From: Dehalococcoidia bacterium
GTDB taxonomy: Bacteria > Chloroflexota > Dehalococcoidia > Tepidiformales > Tepidiformaceae
DNA: 27,479 bases
Direction: 5' to 3'
Assembly (NCBI GenBank): GCA_023228745.1
Contig: JALOAP010000001.1
Location: 1 to 27,479 of the forward strand
In this document: positions 10,584 through 27,228 of the stretch, piece by piece
Layout: each line of letters begins with the position of its first letter
Position numbering within the stretch: the stretch's first letter is position 1
Notes under the pieces: generated by a model
What the model saw: only the letters and a program-made list of their open reading frames with translations
Told to the model about the DNA's origin: nothing
Database searches by the model: none
Program-made: the position numbers and the translations under genes

Positions 10584-11681
10584 ATGTCCCCGCGTACCAA
10601 CGGCTTCGAGCGAGACCTTAACCTCGTCCGGCGCCGGGCCTGGCTCTTCATCCCCTTCTTTGTCCTCGGCCTTCTTGCCGCATTCGCGGCGGGCACCGTC
10701 GCGGGTGATTCGACGGCGGTTGCGACCATGCAACTCGACACCATGGTCCACGACATGGTGCCCGGCGGCGACCGCGGCCTGCGCATTTTCGAAGCCCAGG
10801 CGATGACCACCGATGACCGCTTCAAGGCGGCTGTCCGCGAAGAGATCGGCGACCCGAACTTCGACATCGCGCGCTTCGTTGTGGTCCTGCGGCCCGTCTC
10901 CATCGCCGAGGGTGTTTCGCGCGGCACGCTGACGGTCTCCATCGCGGACAGCGATAAGGCCACCGCCGGCCGCTATCGCGATGCGTGGGTGTCCGTTTTC
11001 GAACACCACTACACGGCCCTCGACGGCCTCTTCCGCACGCGCTTCATCGAGAGCAAGCAGGACGTCGCCGACCTCGCCGAGCAGCGCTATACAGAAACGT
11101 TCGCAGCGATCCAGGGGCAGCACCCCGAGTTGCCGCTCGATGAACTGGTGCGGTCGCCCGACCAGCGCGGCTTCACGCTCGTCGAAGAGCTCAGCCGCCA
11201 GGAAGGGCAGCTCTTGCGGCAACTGGCCGAGGTCGAGGGCGCGCTCGCAAGCGGGAACGTAACGGGTGCCCTCGCGTCGGCGGTGCTTGGGACGCCCATC
11301 GCCGATGGCCAGGCACAGGCAGCGCTCGAAGGGCGCCGCGCGTCGCTCGAAGCCGCGATCGGCACCGTGCGCGAACAGCGCGCCGCCTACTCCGACGCGA
11401 GCCTCGACCCCGAGTTGCGGACCGCGATCGACGACCTGCGTTCGCTGGCGGACCTCCGGCTCGAAAGCGCGACGCGCCTGAACAACGCCCGCGTGGTCAT
11501 CACCTCCGCCCAGAGCGACGTCGAGACGACCTACACCTTTTCCGGCGGTGTCGCGGGTTCCATGGCCGGGCGGGTCGCGATTGTGGTCGCCATCACGGTT
11601 GTCTTCGGGGTCATCGCCATCTACGCGCTCGAATGGCTGTCGCAGGTGCGGACTGGCGTGGAAGAGCGCGAAACGGCCTGA
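10584..11681 (+). CDS. Membrane protein with polysaccharide co-polymerase (Wzz/PCP)-like topology
   Basis: N-terminal TM (LFIPFFVLGLLAAFAAG), long helical middle region, C-terminal TM (VAIVVAITVVFGVIAIYALEW); sits between wzy-like and GT genes. Confidence 0.55.
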   Translation: MSPRTNGFERDLNLVRRRAWLFIPFFVLGLLAAFAAGTVAGDSTAVATMQLDTMVHDMVPGGDRGLRIFEAQAMTTDDRFKAAVREEIGDPNFDIARFVVVLRPVSIAEGVSRGTLTVSIADSDKATAGRYRDAWVSVFEHHYTALDGLFRTRFIESKQDVADLAEQRYTETFAAIQGQHPELPLDELVRSPDQRGFTLVEELSRQEGQLLRQLAEVEGALASGNVTGALASAVLGTPIADGQAQAALEGRRASLEAAIGTVREQRAAYSDASLDPELRTAIDDLRSLADLRLESATRLNNARVVITSAQSDVETTYTFSGGVAGSMAGRVAIVVAITVVFGVIAIYALEWLSQVRTGVEERETA

Positions 11682-11695
11682 GCGAGCAGGGCGCC

Positions 11696-12676
11696 ATGCG
11701 CATCGCCGAGATCAACGATGTGGCCAACGTGGCTTCCGAGCTGGGCCGCGCGCTCGAAGCACGTGGCCACGATGTGACGCTGATCCAGCCGCGTGCCTTC
11801 GGGGCGAAGCTCCCATGGATGGTGAAGCCACTGGCGGCCCCCGCGCGCCTCGTCGACTGGGCGGGAATCATCCGTCACGTTCGCGCCGGCAACTTCGACG
11901 CCGTGCACATCCACTACGCGTCGACGGGCGTGCTGGGTGAACTTGGCCACTTCCCCTATGTGCTCCACTGCCACGGGACCGATGTACGCTCGATGACGCC
12001 GTTCACCCGCCCGCTTGTGACATGGGTGCTGCGGAACGCGGAGCACGTCTACTACGCCACGCCCGACATCCAGAAGAATGTCATCCCGTACCGGCCTGAC
12101 GCCGAATTCCTGCCGAATCCGATTGATGCCGAGATGTTCCGGCCGCTTACGCCGGCGCGCGACCAGCGCGATGTCTTCATCGCCTGTTGGCTGACCGGCA
12201 TCAAGGGTGCGCCGAATATCCTCGATGCCTGCCGGCGGCTGGCGGCCGAGCGCCCGGACATTCGCATCACCGGTATCGCCAGCGGCCCCTACGACGAGCG
12301 CTTCAGCGCACTCCCGAACGTGACGCTGCTGGCGCGGCAGCCGCGGGCGAAGTTGCCGGACATCATCGCCCGGCACGGCGTGGTCATCGGCCAGAGTCAC
12401 CTGGGTATCGCGGGGATGCTGGAGCTGGAGGCGATGGCCTGTGGCCGCCCTGTCGTCACCTCCTTCGCCTACAACGATGTCTACCCGGAGCCGAGCCCGA
12501 TGGTGCTCGCGGCTGACGGCGAGGAGATCGCCGCGGAGGTCATCCGCCTGGTGGACGACGCCGACGCCCGGCAGGCCATCGGCGACGCGAGCCGCGCCTG
12601 GGTGCAGCGCCACCACGACCCCCAGGTCGTCGCCACCCGCCTGGAGGCGACACTGCGCGAAGTCGCCGGCCGGTAG
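11696..12676 (+). CDS. GT-B glycosyltransferase (GT4-like)
   Basis: FDAVHIH, VLHCHGTD, FLPNPIDAEMF, IKG, ELEAMACGRPVV; start at ATG 11696 (MRIAEI), 14 nt after the upstream stop. Confidence 0.9.
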   Translation: MRIAEINDVANVASELGRALEARGHDVTLIQPRAFGAKLPWMVKPLAAPARLVDWAGIIRHVRAGNFDAVHIHYASTGVLGELGHFPYVLHCHGTDVRSMTPFTRPLVTWVLRNAEHVYYATPDIQKNVIPYRPDAEFLPNPIDAEMFRPLTPARDQRDVFIACWLTGIKGAPNILDACRRLAAERPDIRITGIASGPYDERFSALPNVTLLARQPRAKLPDIIARHGVVIGQSHLGIAGMLELEAMACGRPVVTSFAYNDVYPEPSPMVLAADGEEIAAEVIRLVDDADARQAIGDASRAWVQRHHDPQVVATRLEATLREVAGR

Positions 12677-12681
12677 GGAGA

Positions 12682-13044
12682 TCAGGCCGTGAGCTGTTCC
12701 AGCACGTGCCGCGCTGTCTGCCGGACTTCGACCCACTCCGGTGCGTTCTGCAACGCCTCGCGAGTCCAGAGGTCGTCCCGAGGCGGCATTGCACCGAGTT
12801 TGGCGTCGAGGGCACGGAGCGCGACCATCGCGCTCTCGCTTAACTTTCCCGATTCCAGCAGCGAATGCGACGCGCTGAAAGCATCGTCGAACTCCAGCGC
12901 GAGTTCGTCCGCGCATTCGGTGGTGTCGAGATCCTCAAGGTAGGCGAGTTGGGTGCCAGGCTCGGCTGCGAGGTGGGACACAGCAACGCGAAGCATCCCG
13001 AGGAGATTGTCCAGGGCAGCCTGATCGGTGAGTTGCACCATCAT
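12682..13044 (-). CDS. 120-aa acidic helical protein, putative immunity protein
   Basis: ATG overlaps the upstream stop (ATGA, 13044-13041); DELALEFDDAF and LWTREALQNAPEWVEVR; no signal peptide. Confidence 0.6.
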   Translation of the reverse strand: MMVQLTDQAALDNLLGMLRVAVSHLAAEPGTQLAYLEDLDTTECADELALEFDDAFSASHSLLESGKLSESAMVALRALDAKLGAMPPRDDLWTREALQNAPEWVEVRQTARHVLEQLTA

Positions 13045-13316
13045 CGGATCGTACCAGACTTGCCATCGCGTGGGCTGGATAGCCTCCAATACGGCCTCGC
13101 TCCGTGATGCCCACCGCCGGGGTGCCACCTGATGAGGCGCCCGGTTTCGCTTCCATCCGCCCGATACTCCCGCAGCACCCATCCCTGTCCCGCGCGGCTG
13201 CCTCGCCTCAGGCGTTCGACGCTCCACGCCGCCGGGTACCGAAGCTCGGATACCACTTCTTCCGGTGTCTTGCCTGCAAGCCAGTGAGGGTCATCGAACA
13301 GCTTTTCGATGTCCAC
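13041..13316 (-). CDS. 91-aa basic protein resembling a polymorphic-toxin C-terminal domain
   Basis: GTG at 13316, 1 nt after the purL TGA; GKTPEEV...GSRAGQGWVLREY...GRLIRWHPGGGHHGARPYWRLSS. Confidence 0.6.
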   Translation of the reverse strand: MDIEKLFDDPHWLAGKTPEEVVSELRYPAAWSVERLRRGSRAGQGWVLREYRADGSETGRLIRWHPGGGHHGARPYWRLSSPRDGKSGTIR

Positions 13317-13317
13317 C

Positions 13318-15543
13318 TCACGCCACGCCCGCCTCGTACGCTTCCTGCAGCGCGGCAACCGTCGTATCGATCGGGCCGAAGGCGAAACGGCCGCTATCGT
13401 TCGTGCGGCCGAGCCGCGTGACCGGCACCCCGATTTCCTGCGCGAGGTCCCGCAGCCGGGCGGTGCCACCAGCCTGGCGGAACTCGTCGCCGCGGACGCT
13501 GACCACGATTCGGCCCTGTGCCTCGCCGAAGAGTGCGGCGTCCAGCCGGCCCGTGACCTCCGTCTCCGCTTCGAAGCCACAATCGCCGAGAATCGCGGAT
13601 TCAGCGAGCGTCACCGCGAGCCCGCCGTCCGAGCAGTCGTGCGCCGAGAGCAGCAGGCCCTCGTCGTTCAGCCGCAGGACAAGCTGCTGCAGGCGGTGCT
13701 CCGCCTGCAGGTCGACCTCCGGCATACCAGCCACCTTGCCGTGCTCCGCCTCCAGGTATTCGCTCCCGGAAAGCGCGCTCGCGGGCTGTTCGACCGCTGC
13801 GCCAAGGAGCCATACGTCGCTATTCGCGCGCTGGAAGCCGGACTGGAGGTGCCGCGAAACGTCTTCGAGCAGCCCCAGCATGCCGATCACCGGGGTTGGG
13901 TAGATGGGCCGCTCGTCCGTCTCGTTGTAAAGGCTCACGTTGCCGCTGACGACCGGCGTGCTGAATACCGAGCACGCTTCGGAGATGCCGTGCACCGCCT
14001 GCGAAAGCTGCCAGTAGACGTCCGGCTTCTCCGGGTTGCCGAAGTTCAGACAGTCGGTGATGGCGACCGGCACGGCTCCTGTGCAGACGATGTTCCGGGC
14101 CGCCTCCGCGACGGCGATCGCAGAGCCGTTGTAGGGCGAGAGGTAGCAGAGACGGCCGTTGCAGTCGGTCGTGATGGCGATGCCCCGGTTCGTGCCATCG
14201 ATACGGATGACGGCCGCCCCGCCTCCGGGCGCGACGACAGTGTTGCCGCGCACCATGTGGTCGTACTGGCGGAAGATGGACCGCTTGCTCGTGATGTTCG
14301 GCCGCCGCAGGAGCCGCAAGAGCGCCCCCGTCGCCTCGCCCGGCGCGAGGTCGGGCAGGCTCGCGAGGTCGAACGCGTTCAGTTCGAGGATCTCGGCAGG
14401 AGGCACGCCTTCGCGGACGTAGTAGGGCGGTTCGGTCGCGATCTCCGTGGGCACGCGGGCGACTTCGACGCCGTCGTCGTGGATCACCACTTCGTTCCCG
14501 TCGGTGACCTGGCCGATCTCTTCGCAGTGAAGCTCCCAGCGGGAGAAAAGTGCCTTCACGTCGTCCAGGTGTTCGCGCTTCGCGATGACGAGCATGCGCT
14601 CCTGGCTCTCGCTGAGCATGATCTCGTACGGCGTCATTCCAGGTTCGCGGCGTGGTACCTTCGCGAGTTCGAGGAGCGCGCCCGAGTTGCCCCTGGCGCA
14701 GCACTCGACGACAGAACTCGTGAGCCCCGCGGCGCCCAGGTCCTGCAGCCCCACGATCCAGTCGCGATGCTCGGAGGCGAGTTCGTAGCAGGCCTCCATC
14801 AGGAGCTTTTCCAGGAACGGGTTTCCCACCTGCACCGCGGGACGCATCTCCTCGAAGCGCGCCTCGGGGTCGGTGCGGCTGGCGAGGCCGCTGGCGCCGT
14901 GGATGCCGTCGCGGCCGGTGTCGGCGCCCACGAGCAGCAGGGGGTTGCCCTTGCCGCGCGCGGCCGCTGAGAGCAGCTTCTTCGTCTCGGCAAGGCCGAC
15001 GCACATGGCGTTGACAAGCGGGTTGCCGGTGTAGGAATCGGCGAAGACCACTTCGCCGCCCACGTTTGGCACTCCCAGGCAGTTGCCATAAAACCCGATA
15101 CCCGCCACCGCGCCTTCGAGCAGCCAGCGGTTCTGTGGGTCATCGGGCGGGCCGAAGCGCAGCGAGTCGAGGACGGCGATGGGGTAGGCGCCCATCGCGA
15201 AAATGTCACGCACGATGCCGCCCACACCGGTCGCAGCACCCTGGAAGGGCTCGATCGCCGACGGGTGGTTGTGCGATTCCACTTTCATGACGACGCAGAG
15301 GCCGTCGCCGATGTCGATCGCGCCGGCATTTTCGGCGCCGGCCTCTGTCAGGACGCGGTCGCCGCCGGTGGGAAAGAGGCGCAGCAGCGGTTTGCTGTTC
15401 TTGTAGCCGCAGTGTTCGCTCCAAAGGGAGCCAAACATACCGAGCTCGACCTCGTTCGGCTCACGGCCGAGCTGCTGGACGAGCAGGTCGTACTCGTCGC
15501 GGCTGAGCGCGACTGCATCGAGGGCATCCTGGTCGACGGGCAT
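13318..15543 (-). CDS. purL: Phosphoribosylformylglycinamidine synthase subunit PurL (small form)
   Basis: WSEHCGYKNSK, KVESHNHPSAIEPFQGAATGVGG, QDLGAAG, MLSESQERM, NFGNPEK, VSGNVSLYNE, HDCSDGGL; 741 aa with no fused glutaminase domain. Confidence 0.98.
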   Translation of the reverse strand: MPVDQDALDAVALSRDEYDLLVQQLGREPNEVELGMFGSLWSEHCGYKNSKPLLRLFPTGGDRVLTEAGAENAGAIDIGDGLCVVMKVESHNHPSAIEPFQGAATGVGGIVRDIFAMGAYPIAVLDSLRFGPPDDPQNRWLLEGAVAGIGFYGNCLGVPNVGGEVVFADSYTGNPLVNAMCVGLAETKKLLSAAARGKGNPLLLVGADTGRDGIHGASGLASRTDPEARFEEMRPAVQVGNPFLEKLLMEACYELASEHRDWIVGLQDLGAAGLTSSVVECCARGNSGALLELAKVPRREPGMTPYEIMLSESQERMLVIAKREHLDDVKALFSRWELHCEEIGQVTDGNEVVIHDDGVEVARVPTEIATEPPYYVREGVPPAEILELNAFDLASLPDLAPGEATGALLRLLRRPNITSKRSIFRQYDHMVRGNTVVAPGGGAAVIRIDGTNRGIAITTDCNGRLCYLSPYNGSAIAVAEAARNIVCTGAVPVAITDCLNFGNPEKPDVYWQLSQAVHGISEACSVFSTPVVSGNVSLYNETDERPIYPTPVIGMLGLLEDVSRHLQSGFQRANSDVWLLGAAVEQPASALSGSEYLEAEHGKVAGMPEVDLQAEHRLQQLVLRLNDEGLLLSAHDCSDGGLAVTLAESAILGDCGFEAETEVTGRLDAALFGEAQGRIVVSVRGDEFRQAGGTARLRDLAQEIGVPVTRLGRTNDSGRFAFGPIDTTVAALQEAYEAGVA

Positions 15544-24285: not shown

Positions 24286-24873
24286 TCAGGCCCCGGGCAC
24301 GGTGGCGGGAAAGACATCGGCGACGGGCAGTGAGAAGCCCTCGACCGGGAAACCGGCGTCGTCGCTGGTGAGTATTCCGCCTTCGACGAACCGGTGCGAA
24401 TCGCCGTTTGGGCGGTGGACCGTGATGGACCGCCCCGCAGGCCGGACGAGCCACACGCGCTTGGCCCCGGCGGTGAGGTATTCCTGTGCTTTCATCTCGC
24501 TGTCGCGCTCGAGGTCGGAAGGGGAGATCACCTCGATGGCGAGCGTCGGCGGGCCGGGGAAGTAGCCGATAGGTTCACCGGCCTTCGCGAGTGTCGCCGC
24601 ATCAATCCAGTACACATCTGGCGCAACTATGCGGTCGGGGTTCTCGCGCAGCAGGAAGCCAGTCTCGAACTGGACAACGCCCAGTTCGTGCGCCTCCACG
24701 AACGCGTCGAGGGCACGGAAGACGCGGCGCGCGAACACGCCATGTTGGAACGCGGGTGGGGGCATGTGGATCACCTCACCGTCGAACAGCTCCATCCGCC
24801 TGCCCTCCGGGTCGTCGGGCAGGTGCATGAACTCCTCGGCGGTGAGGAGCCGGGGCCGGGATGCCGTCGTCAT
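24286..24873 (-). CDS. Uma2-family (PD-(D/E)xK) putative endonuclease
   Basis: MELFDGEV, APDVYW, PTLAIEVISPSD, KAQEYLTAGAKRVWLV; likely start ATG at 24873 (alternative 24882). Confidence 0.92.
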   Translation of the reverse strand: MTTASRPRLLTAEEFMHLPDDPEGRRMELFDGEVIHMPPPAFQHGVFARRVFRALDAFVEAHELGVVQFETGFLLRENPDRIVAPDVYWIDAATLAKAGEPIGYFPGPPTLAIEVISPSDLERDSEMKAQEYLTAGAKRVWLVRPAGRSITVHRPNGDSHRFVEGGILTSDDAGFPVEGFSLPVADVFPATVPGA

Positions 24874-24930
24874 AGCGCTCATCCTACCGCAACCGCGGCG
24901 ATTCTACTCGCGTACGACCCGCACGGAGCG

Positions 24931-26190
24931 TCAGACGGCCAGCTTCACGTCGGTGATACCGGGCACCGGATAGGCACGGGCGAACTCGGCGACTTCCTGC
25001 CGCACCGTCTCGCGTACGCCATCGCCATCCGGGTCCTTCACCACGCGCAGGATCCAGCCGGCCACGCGCTTCATCTCGTCCGGGCCCATGTCGCGCGAGG
25101 TCAACGCCGGTGTACCGAGCCGCAGTCCGCTGCCCACGTAGGGCGGGCGCTCGTCGTAGGGGATCGTGTTCCGGTTGGTGATGATCCCCGCTCCCTGGAG
25201 TGCGTTCTGCGCCTTCAGGCCGCTGATCCCGACGGAGTTGCAGTCCGCGAGCAGCAGGTGGTTATCGGTCCCGCCCGAAACGAGCCGCAGCCCGCCCGCC
25301 TGCAGCGCCTCCGCGAGCGCCTTCGCATTTTCGACGATGCGGCGCGCGTAGTCTGCGAACTCCGGCTGTAGTGCCTCGGCGAAGGCCACCGCCTTCCCGG
25401 CGATCGAGTGCATGTGGGGGCCGCCCTGTGTGCCGGGGAACACGGCCTTGTCGATCGCCTCGGCCAGCGCCGCCGTCGAGAGGATCATGCCGCCGCGTGG
25501 GCCGCGCAGGGTCTTGTGCGTCGTGGTCGTGATCATGTCGGCATGCGGCACGGGCGAGTCGTGCTGGCCGCCGGCGATGAGCCCGGCAATGTGCGACATA
25601 TCGACCATGAGCAGCGCGCCGCACGCCTTCGCCACCTGGGCGAAAGCCGCGAAATCGATCTTCCGCGGGTAGGCGGTGTAACCGGCGACGATGACCTTCG
25701 GCTTCGATTCGAGCGCGAGCTTGCGTACGGCAGCCATGTCGATGACTTCCGATTCGCGGTCGACGCTGTAGGGAACGAAGTTGTAGAGCCGCCCGCTGAA
25801 GTTGACCGGCGAGCCGTGCGTCAGGTGGCCACCCTGGTCGAGGCTGAGGCCCATGATGGTGTCACCCGGTTCGACCGTGGCCAGGTAGGCGGCCATGTTC
25901 GCTTCCGCACCGGAGGTGGACTGCACGTTCGCGTGTTCGGCGCCGAAGAGCTGCTTCGCGCGGTCGATAGCGAGCGATTCGAGGCGATCGCTGTGCTGGT
26001 TGCCCGCGTAGTAGCGCTTACCCGGGTAGCCCTCGGCGTACTTATTGGTGAAGACGGAGCCAGTGGCTTCGAGGACGGCTGCCGAGGCGTAGTTCTCGCT
26101 CGCGATCATCTCGAGCGATTCGACCTGGCGCGTCCGCTCGTCGGCGATGATTGCGGCGACATCGGGGTCGCGCTGCGAAAGGGCGCTCAT
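24931..26190 (-). CDS. glyA: Serine hydroxymethyltransferase
   Basis: LEMIASEN, NKYAEGYPGKRYYAG, GGHLTHG, DMSHIAGL, PLP-lysine motif TTTTHKTLRGPRGG, FPGTQGGP, GGTDNHL; GGAGG SD. Confidence 0.99.
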   Translation of the reverse strand: MSALSQRDPDVAAIIADERTRQVESLEMIASENYASAAVLEATGSVFTNKYAEGYPGKRYYAGNQHSDRLESLAIDRAKQLFGAEHANVQSTSGAEANMAAYLATVEPGDTIMGLSLDQGGHLTHGSPVNFSGRLYNFVPYSVDRESEVIDMAAVRKLALESKPKVIVAGYTAYPRKIDFAAFAQVAKACGALLMVDMSHIAGLIAGGQHDSPVPHADMITTTTHKTLRGPRGGMILSTAALAEAIDKAVFPGTQGGPHMHSIAGKAVAFAEALQPEFADYARRIVENAKALAEALQAGGLRLVSGGTDNHLLLADCNSVGISGLKAQNALQGAGIITNRNTIPYDERPPYVGSGLRLGTPALTSRDMGPDEMKRVAGWILRVVKDPDGDGVRETVRQEVAEFARAYPVPGITDVKLAV

Positions 26191-26316: not shown

Positions 26317-27228
26317 TTAGTCCTCGTCCGTGAAGAAGTCGGTGTCGATTTTTCGAACCTCGTAGACCGCCTTGGTGGTCACACCGAGGCCGACGTCGTA
26401 CATCATTGCCGCCAGCTGCTGCCCATCCACGAGGACGATCCGCTCGTTCATCCGCTCCGCGTCAGAGTAGGCGTCTCGCGTGAAAGTGGACGATGTAATG
26501 AGTACGCCCTTTTTGGCGCGGTGTGCCGCGAGGGCGCCGGCGAAAGCGCGAACTACAGGTGCACCGACACTCCCTTCCCAGCGTTTCGCCTGGATGTACA
26601 CGAGGTCGAGTCCTAGCTTGTCTTCTTTGATAACGCCGTCGATCCCGCCGTCTCCACTGCGCCCGAGGGTTTCGCCAGAATCTGGTGTGCCACCGTAGCC
26701 CAACCTCAGTAGGAGTTGCACCACCAGCCGCTCGAAGAACGCCGGTGACATCGCTTTGACGGCTCGCAGCAACTCATCCTCGATGGAAGCCCGGATGCGC
26801 TCGTAACTGGTGTCCAATTCCTCTTCGGGGTCGAGTGGGATCGGCACGGCAGCAACGGACGCATCGCCCCGCTTGGCTCTCGAACTCCCCCTCCACTCTC
26901 GCATCTCGGGGAAGCGGTCCGTGAGCAGTCGCGTGCTAAGGGATGGAAGACTCTCTTCGAGGACCTGTTTCCCCCGGGAAGTGATACGAACCGTGCCACG
27001 TGCTTCAGATTTCAATAGCCCGGCCTTGAGGAGGTAAGCCCTCGCCCAGTGGACGCGGCTGCGAAAGAGGGGCCCCTTCCCGGAGGGCCGCAACTGTGTT
27101 CGCTCCGATTCCGAAAGTCGGAACTCGTCTGCGAGCGCTCGGTGCAGTTCCGAGATCGAGTAGGTATCGCCATCGGAAATGTGCTTCAAGAGGGGAAGCA
27201 TCAACGTTTCGTAGTCAGGAATGGCCAA
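26317..27228 (-). CDS. mrr: Mrr-family type IV restriction endonuclease
   Basis: MAIPDYETLMLPLL N-terminal domain, FRSRVHWARAYL, FFERLVVQLL, SGDGGIDGVI, IQAKRW, GVLITSSTF; TTG start with a GGAGG SD. Confidence 0.95.
   Translation of the reverse strand: MAIPDYETLMLPLLKHISDGDTYSISELHRALADEFRLSESERTQLRPSGKGPLFRSRVHWARAYLLKAGLLKSEARGTVRITSRGKQVLEESLPSLSTRLLTDRFPEMREWRGSSRAKRGDASVAAVPIPLDPEEELDTSYERIRASIEDELLRAVKAMSPAFFERLVVQLLLRLGYGGTPDSGETLGRSGDGGIDGVIKEDKLGLDLVYIQAKRWEGSVGAPVVRAFAGALAAHRAKKGVLITSSTFTRDAYSDAERMNERIVLVDGQQLAAMMYDVGLGVTTKAVYEVRKIDTDFFTDED

Follow-up and report, generated by a model that had tools for sequence, protein, structure and literature searches.

In the Rhs tip/RhsI modules and orphan cassettes of polymorphic toxin systems (PMC3482391, PMC3150448), a small basic toxin forms the C-terminus of an RHS-repeat protein, a tightly linked acidic immunity gene follows it, and copies without a delivery part exist. 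Orphan Rhs modules are also described as type II toxin-antitoxin (TA) systems in Salmonella, where a delivery-less tip and its immunity protein are reported to be expressed inside the producer (PMC7043789). A third related class is formed by orphan immunity genes and acquired interbacterial defence clusters, which are reported to provide immunity without a deliverable cognate toxin, presumably against the effectors of neighbours (PMC10470768, PMC10539506). Here we describe a cassette of two small open reading frames (ORFs), ORF91 and ORF120, named for the number of amino acids (aa) they encode and attached to the 3´ end of purL in a 27,479-nucleotide (nt) stretch of DNA from a Dehalococcoidia bacterium of the family Tepidiformaceae (assembly GCA_023228745.1, contig JALOAP010000001.1, positions 1 to 27,479), referred to below as the window. 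A polymorphic-toxin tip with its immunity gene, orphan modules included, is known; what is new is a pair of families without names, a toxin model to which no solved structure is related, and a solo placement at the tails of core genes in which a decay series can be followed. The reading that we lean towards, by a little better than an even chance, is that a solo toxin-immunity cassette was captured, is expressed by translational coupling on the purL transcript and is kept mainly for immunity, with the toxin intact and neutralised.

The window cassette shares the general build of the Rhs tip/RhsI modules and departs from them in several respects. It does not lie beside a full-length rhs gene, has no RHS-core homology and is attached to the stop codon of a housekeeping gene, and neither of its families matches a Pfam Ntox, Tox or Imm model. 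A classical orphan cassette sits downstream of a full-length rhs or cdiA gene with a shared junction for recombination, an arrangement not seen among the window genes scanned. The Salmonella orphan modules likewise adjoin a full-length rhs gene, unlike the window cassette, and the immunity-only descendants of the window family argue for an immunity benefit that sets it further apart from them. Compared with the orphan immunity clusters, the cassette still has an intact toxin, and instead of being assembled into mobile poly-immunity islands, its genes occur singly, dispersed over the 3´ ends of core genes.

When 1.84 billion representative proteins were searched exhaustively with phmmer, ORF91 had 424 homologues at E<=1e-3 and 215 at E<=1e-10. 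The match was almost always the extreme C-terminus of a longer protein (up to 2756 aa), and the remaining matches were proteins of 90-130 aa. Upstream of the domain, the long members carry RHS_repeat (in P0010, P0029, P0031, P0047 and P0106), DUF6531 or DUF6443, joined to it by variable linkers that are often Gly/Ala-rich or hydrophobic; the source annotation lists them as "RHS repeat-associated core domain" proteins and the short members as hypothetical. Loci in Streptomyces, Micromonospora, Kribbella and Planctomycetota contain open frames of 1500-2100 aa that show RHS-like similarity. An earlier reading of the window, made from the sequence alone, had likened the 91-aa protein to toxin tips and proposed a search for homologues at the C-termini of long RHS proteins with the same downstream partner. 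Such homologues exist, and the resemblance is one of homology to the C-terminal tips of long RHS-repeat proteins. Judged by these relatives, ORF91 is a polymorphic-toxin C-terminal tip of an unnamed family.

An alignment of 42 toxin-domain sequences (A1, mean column identity ~59%) has ten invariant positions, L13, W31, G39, G43, G45, H65, P66, G67, G72 and Y76, and further near-invariant ones that include R49, Y51, T58, W64, H71 and W77, with W64 and H71 conserved in at least 90% of the sequences. ORF91 retains every invariant and near-invariant residue, and its start coincides exactly with the domain boundary. Its residues 64-77 (WHPGGGHHGARPYW) contain the signature loop of the family. The protein is strongly basic (pI, the isoelectric point, 9.97), with 13 Arg, 12 Gly and 5 Trp residues. 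The AlphaFold2 (AF2) model consists of three short helices at the N-terminus and an antiparallel sheet of four strands, at a predicted local distance difference test score (pLDDT) of 94.6.

The sequence-only reading had suggested Ntox RNase and Imm families as candidates; these were not supported, as there was no Pfam or NCBIfam match and no convincing fold match. ORF91 had no match in Pfam, NCBIfam or PADLOC and a single weak one in PHROGs (E 0.026), to a family of unknown function. The 42 toxin members gave noise only against Pfam, with no Ntox match even at E<=1, and a sequence profile search of the PDB with the toxin was noise as well. Foldseek found no match to the ORF91 model in the PDB or Swiss-Prot, and no barnase, colicin or RelE structure was ranked in the Foldseek PDB, VIA-wide or Swiss-Prot searches; the topology is only loosely reminiscent of BECR or barnase-like RNases. 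Matches in the AlphaFold database (AFDB) clusters and the ESM Atlas were either proteins without a name or C-terminal parts of LXG, PT-VENN and RHS proteins, which is compatible with the toxin-tip class and names no activity. Ntox44, suggested by an AFDB match, was rejected, being all-alpha. The ORF91 motif is absent from the 2012 polymorphic-toxin catalogue (PMC3482391), and a literature search with the motif string yielded nothing relevant.

The closest structure in a VIA scan of 48,161 chains was 8owu_C, the toxin PT7(Bc), with a Z score of 5.7 that is below the noise level of the tool (root-mean-square deviation 2.4 A, 62/76 residues). PT7(Bc), with its immunity protein PIM7(Bc), is a short LXG-linked DNase toxin of novel fold (10.1101/2021.10.19.465003; PDB 8owu). 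Both are small basic tips, and in PT7(Bc) an acidic immunity surface covers the active site as is predicted here, but the two toxins share no sequence similarity and their immunity proteins belong to different families. Another system to be compared is Tox-REHH (Rehh/RehhI), a divergent HNH DNase that forms an unannotated tip of RHS, LXG and CdiA proteins and is neutralised by an acidic immunity surface (10.64898/2026.09.22.753552). It likewise has conserved Arg, Glu and His residues, with R46, H52, E53, H102 and H121 in a longer domain partnered by Imm22 as against R49, E50, H65 and H71 within the 91 aa of ORF91; the residue spacing and the partner family rule out that ORF91 is a Tox-REHH domain. 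The basic charge of ORF91, its conserved His, Glu, Arg and Tyr residues and the acidic partner that would cover it lead us to infer that it probably attacks nucleic acid as a nuclease.

A word-based search with ORF120 found few relatives. With a hidden Markov model (HMM) built from seven members, ~75 of 80 independent loci had a family match immediately 3´ of the toxin domain, whether the toxin was RHS-fused or solo. Given this recurrence and the 424 homologues of ORF91, the window pair is more than a chance arrangement. The loci with this partner span Actinomycetota, Planctomycetota, Chloroflexota, Binatia, Elusimicrobiota, Bacteroidota and others. In an alignment of 63 immunity sequences E47, W93 and W104 are invariant, D46 and L50 are conserved in at least 90%, and an acidic motif, DELALEFDD, stands out. 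ORF120 itself is acidic (pI 4.31, net charge about -13) and was modelled by AF2 as an all-helical bundle (pLDDT 94.4). The proposal that this acidic ORF is a tightly coupled immunity gene agrees with its family standing directly downstream of the tip nearly everywhere, and ORF120 is probably the cognate immunity protein of ORF91. Pfam, NCBIfam, PADLOC and PHROGs had no match to ORF120, the seven immunity members gave noise only against Pfam, and Foldseek against the PDB returned generic helical bundles and no relative. Family and structure searches also gave no match to a DNA-binding family or fold.

The model of the ORF91-ORF120 complex scored 0.86, compared with 0.20 for the best control. 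The mark used for such scores was reached by 58 of 80 solved complexes and by 2 of 110 mismatched pairs, and is a rough guide here, where our own alignments were used. The predicted interface brings toxin residues 36-44, 56-59, H65 and Y76 opposite immunity residues 39-47, 49-55 and 83-93. The model supports binding of ORF120 to the tip by occlusion of its active face, such that the acidic DELALEFDD surface would cover the conserved His/Tyr face.

The layout of the locus (Table 1) suggests how the two proteins could be made. The coordinates and sequence features of purL, ORF91 and ORF120 given in the sequence-only reading were rechecked on the sequence and are as described. The TGA-G-GTG junction between purL and ORF91 is too short for a promoter or a spaced Shine-Dalgarno sequence, and no promoter-like or terminator-like site was found in 12300-13900. 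Lacking its own promoter and enclosed by the stops of purL and a convergent glycosyltransferase gene, the cassette would most likely be co-transcribed with purL and translated by coupling, at TGA-G-GTG and then at the ATGA overlap. Tandem translation of the two ORFs from the purL mRNA, as had been proposed, is plausible on this layout. The GC content at third codon positions (GC3) is 0.685 in ORF91 and 0.744 in ORF120, compared with ~0.85 in the adjoining genes, which fits a foreign origin. Contigs from several other metagenomes (landfill, sediment, biofilm) cover the cassette with near identity; one metagenome piece spans both the immunity/glycosyltransferase and the toxin/immunity junctions, and a single piece reaches across the purL stop, with only 15 bases to the purL side of it.

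Solo copies recur in other genomes. The solo pair of toxin and immunity gene is also present in three more genomes of the family: G012, again after purL with a 62-nt gap in which stops intervene; G025, 17 nt after an ATP-grasp gene; and G034, at a different site. Among the genome contigs, ~20 loci have a stop codon within 30 codons upstream of the domain, many of them with nothing RHS-like within 6 kb. All solo copies start with an ATG, GTG or TTG of their own at the boundary of the domain. The upstream genes encode an amidohydrolase (L014, toxin TTG 10 nt after the stop), RecN (L024, toxin TTG 4 nt after the stop), PolX (L012, GTGA overlap), GltX (L077, ATGGCTGA overlap) and, at junctions that are not tight, GH57 (L056), VKOR (L036), HxlR (L047) and an anti-sigma-like zf-HC2 protein (L057). 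Several solo junctions are thus overlaps or gaps of 1-17 nt to an upstream gene on the same strand. Stand-alone copies, which the sequence-only reading had suggested looking for in Chloroflexota, do recur there and in other phyla as well.

Because solo pairs follow many unrelated housekeeping genes, purL is a landing site and not a functional partner, and the specific tie to purine biosynthesis that had been proposed is not supported. The comparison of purL neighbourhoods in relatives, also proposed, gave a divided answer: the cassette follows purL in G012, and in G001, from the genus of the window, a different convergent gene follows purL and there is no cassette. It is absent from G003 too, and the domain was present in just 2 of 400 other sampled Chloroflexota genomes. 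For the purL-linked cassettes of the window and G012 the tree is unresolved, with p 0.32 in an AU test on a single shared insertion. The cassette is best described as a patchy accessory element that tends to occupy the tails of expressed genes. We also noted that a contig of another genome of the window's genus (G002:C17, L090) terminates exactly at the purL 3´ end (36855), which could mean variable or repeated sequence downstream.

We then asked which of the two partners is retained. A metagenome scan with the seven-sequence immunity alignment yielded loci anchored on the immunity gene and so not biased toward an intact toxin. In ~30 assessable loci of this kind, the toxin was intact in ~10, a remnant or frameshifted in 5 (L102, L105/L106, L110, L118) and missing in ~14. 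Some of the toxin-less immunity genes also follow housekeeping genes, namely lepA, an rpoD-like gene and a PQQ dehydrogenase gene. The most informative case is a metagenome contig (Ga0307374_10057347; L123:3-2526) with the order purL-immunity-P450, which is collinear, at ~85% DNA identity, with the purL-toxin-immunity-P450 segment of G012 (G012:C120; L004/L093). The two differ by an indel of ~320 nt (330 nt in G012, 11 nt in L123) that starts 19 nt past the purL stop and extends over the entire toxin ORF as far as the immunity ATG. Between the two loci, the immunity genes are 88% identical with a dN/dS of 0.135, compared with 0.071 for the purL fragment and 0.039 for the P450 fragment. On the strength of this dN/dS value, the immunity gene is kept under constraint across a divergence in which one lineage is without the toxin.

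Two other loci are recorded as observations in their own right. At L135:1106-3350, the gene directly after lepA belongs to the ORF120 family and is broken into two frames; there is no toxin, and the locus looks like a decayed immunity-only relic. At L127:122-1841, on a metagenome contig of 27% GC, a Phd/YefM-like antitoxin and a RelE/ParE-like toxin (both assigned by eye) precede an ORF120-family gene and more small ORFs, and this may be a mixed TA and immunity islet.

The sequence-only reading had left two options, a captured orphan cassette that preserves immunity and a toxin tip domesticated as a TA pair. We favour the first because immunity-only and toxin-decayed loci are common and because in L123 the toxin ORF alone has gone and the immunity gene remains under constraint; the second is the main rival. 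In the captured-cassette reading, ORF91 would be the catalytic tip, ~90 aa long, found elsewhere at the end of RHS-repeat proteins and other long secreted toxins. The lasting value of the cassette would most likely lie in immunity against the toxins of neighbours that bear this tip, as in orphan immunity, and the intact toxin would be a neutralised passenger, early on a trajectory from gain through toxin decay to immunity only. Half of the genomes sampled from the same family (20 of 40), G025 and G034 with their solo pairs among them, encode RHS-repeat proteins, and it is thus plausible that neighbours are armed with RHS toxins.

Several observations weigh against this interpretation. The solo toxin of the window has a start codon and all invariant and near-invariant residues, and at positions that played no part in their detection, solo copies have not degenerated further than fused ones, a comparison subject to ascertainment caveats. 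As a pure passenger would be expected to decay, the toxin may be selected for itself. In addition, the direction of the L123/G012 indel, toxin loss and not gain, is set by parsimony, and the complex score is the model's own confidence, obtained with author-made alignments.

These points lead to the main rival, in which the pair is an addiction or defence module of the TA type. The solo toxin would be selected for itself and, made from a housekeeping transcript together with an immunity protein of lower stability, would stabilise its own locus or kill the cell under stress or phage attack. The intact ORF91 with all of its conserved residues, the conservation of solo copies at the level of fused ones (with the caveats above) and the persistence of solo pairs in four genera of one family all fit this view. 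So does the gene arrangement, in which, as in type II TA systems, adjacent co-oriented genes are tightly coupled by the ATGA overlap and their products are predicted to bind (0.86 versus 0.20). There is precedent in the Salmonella orphan Rhs modules reported to act as type II TA systems (PMC7043789) and in versions of Ntox24 that occur in apparent TA systems (PMC3482391). On the other hand, neither protein matches a TA or defence family in Pfam, NCBIfam or PADLOC, and ORF120 lacks both a DNA-binding domain and a promoter that it could autoregulate, so that the DNA-binding, self-regulating antitoxin of a type II system is missing. Moreover, pure addiction predicts that immunity decays after loss of the toxin, and toxin-less loci with a conserved immunity gene are common. 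We consider this explanation unlikely, if serious.

A broader proposal, which we regard as rather doubtful, is that the cassette represents a class of promoter-less "operon-tail" elements that land at housekeeping stops (purL, recN, gltX, polX and others), use host transcription and coupling, and act as self-stabilising TA-like modules, with a toxin fold that has no solved relative and immunity-only loci as their fossils.

The solo toxin could also still be a weapon, exported by an unrecognised route, or a reserve tip waiting to recombine into a full-length rhs gene. The swapping of stand-alone toxin cassettes into polymorphic toxins is established (PMC3482391), and half of the sampled family genomes, G025 and G034 among them, have RHS proteins. 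However, there is no upstream RHS-core homology: a stop lies 1 nt upstream in the window and within 30 codons in the other solo loci. ORF91 begins at the domain boundary and leaves no space for a leader, and no secretion gene was seen among the window genes scanned against Pfam. The sole RHS hit in the bin is on a contig of 41% GC that is probably contamination, and no LXG protein was found. On balance, this explanation is improbable.

That ORF91 is made as a C-terminal extension of PurL by frameshifting or read-through at the purL stop is scarcely credible, for although a single base separates the purL TGA from the ORF91 frame and the toxin is in frame with the upstream gene, one stop codon apart, at three loci (L014:5989-6003, L024:5989-6000, L056:5950-5985), a +1 shift at GCG-TGA-G has no slippery re-pairing, the G012 toxin lies 62 nt past purL with intervening stops, three in-frame cases among about a dozen are the chance expectation of one in three, and the solo copies all begin at the domain boundary with a start codon of their own. 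At the three in-frame loci themselves, a fusion made by read-through may still occur.

The captured-cassette reading is thus the one that we retain, and part of its interest is independent of the choice among explanations. A widespread toxin tip (WHPGGGHHG..PYW) and a dedicated helical immunity partner (DELALEFDD) are now defined from Streptomyces to Planctomycetota and Chloroflexota; both families are without a Pfam model, the toxin has no solved structural relative, and the pair is ready for biochemistry. The loci also make visible a life cycle of the cassette outside rhs loci, in which insertion at the tail of a core gene with an intact, neutralised toxin would be followed by decay or precise deletion of the toxin and a conserved orphan immunity gene. 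This opens the question of why delivery-less toxins persist, as immunity reservoirs or as addiction modules, and bears on the spread of immunity to interbacterial toxins in uncultured Chloroflexota.

Table 1. Features of the cassette and its flanking genes in the window
Feature	Position	Strand	Start and stop codons	Basis
purL (FGAM synthase II, 741 aa), with the cassette attached at its 3´ end	13318..15543	-	stop TGA 13320-13318	Pfam AIRS 4.7e-55, AIRS_C 2e-47, FGAR-AT linker; GC3 0.86
Junction TGA-G-GTG (purL stop, single base G 13317, ORF91 start)	13314..13320	-	stop TGA 13320-13318; start GTG 13316-13314	sequence
ORF91, stand-alone polymorphic-toxin C-terminal domain (by homology), 91 aa, unnamed family	13041..13316	-	start GTG 13316-13314; stop TGA 13043-13041	phmmer homologues, RHS repeats in several, AF2 model
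WHPGGGHHG codons (residues 64-72), signature loop with invariant H65 and near-invariant H71	13101..13127	-		alignment A1
ATGA overlap of ORF91 stop and ORF120 start	13041..13044	-	stop TGA 13043-13041; start ATG 13044-13042	sequence; similarly tight toxin/immunity spacing at other loci
ORF120, probable cognate immunity protein, 120 aa, unnamed family	12682..13044	-	start ATG 13044-13042; stop TGA 12684-12682	family HMM, AF2 model, complex model
DELALEFDD codons (residues 46-54), conserved acidic motif of the immunity family	12883..12909	-		63-sequence alignment
Convergent GT4 glycosyltransferase, 5 nt from the ORF120 stop, bounding the cassette	11633..12676	+		Pfam Glyco_transf_4, Glycos_transf_1

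The window is contig C246 of a metagenome-assembled genome (3.54 Mb, 586 contigs, 83% complete, ~67% GC). Two further statements of the sequence-only reading agree with the analysis: the copy is without a delivery domain, the purL stop lying 1 nt upstream and ORF91 beginning at the domain boundary, and neither a secretion gene nor an RHS gene was found among the window genes scanned against Pfam. No RHS-core remnant was found upstream of the window cassette, and no LXG protein was found in the bin. A single RHS hit was obtained in the bin; it takes up a 4.1-kb contig (G000:C312, L097:1-4153) of 41% GC, as against ~67% for the window, and has a different tip that is hydrophobic and resembles a transmembrane segment; this contig is probably a binning contamination. 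Elsewhere in the window, purF (165-1841) is distant from purL, and glyA (serine hydroxymethyltransferase, SHMT; 24931-26190) is flanked by genes for a putative endonuclease of the Uma2 family (24286-24882) and an Mrr restriction endonuclease (26317-27228).

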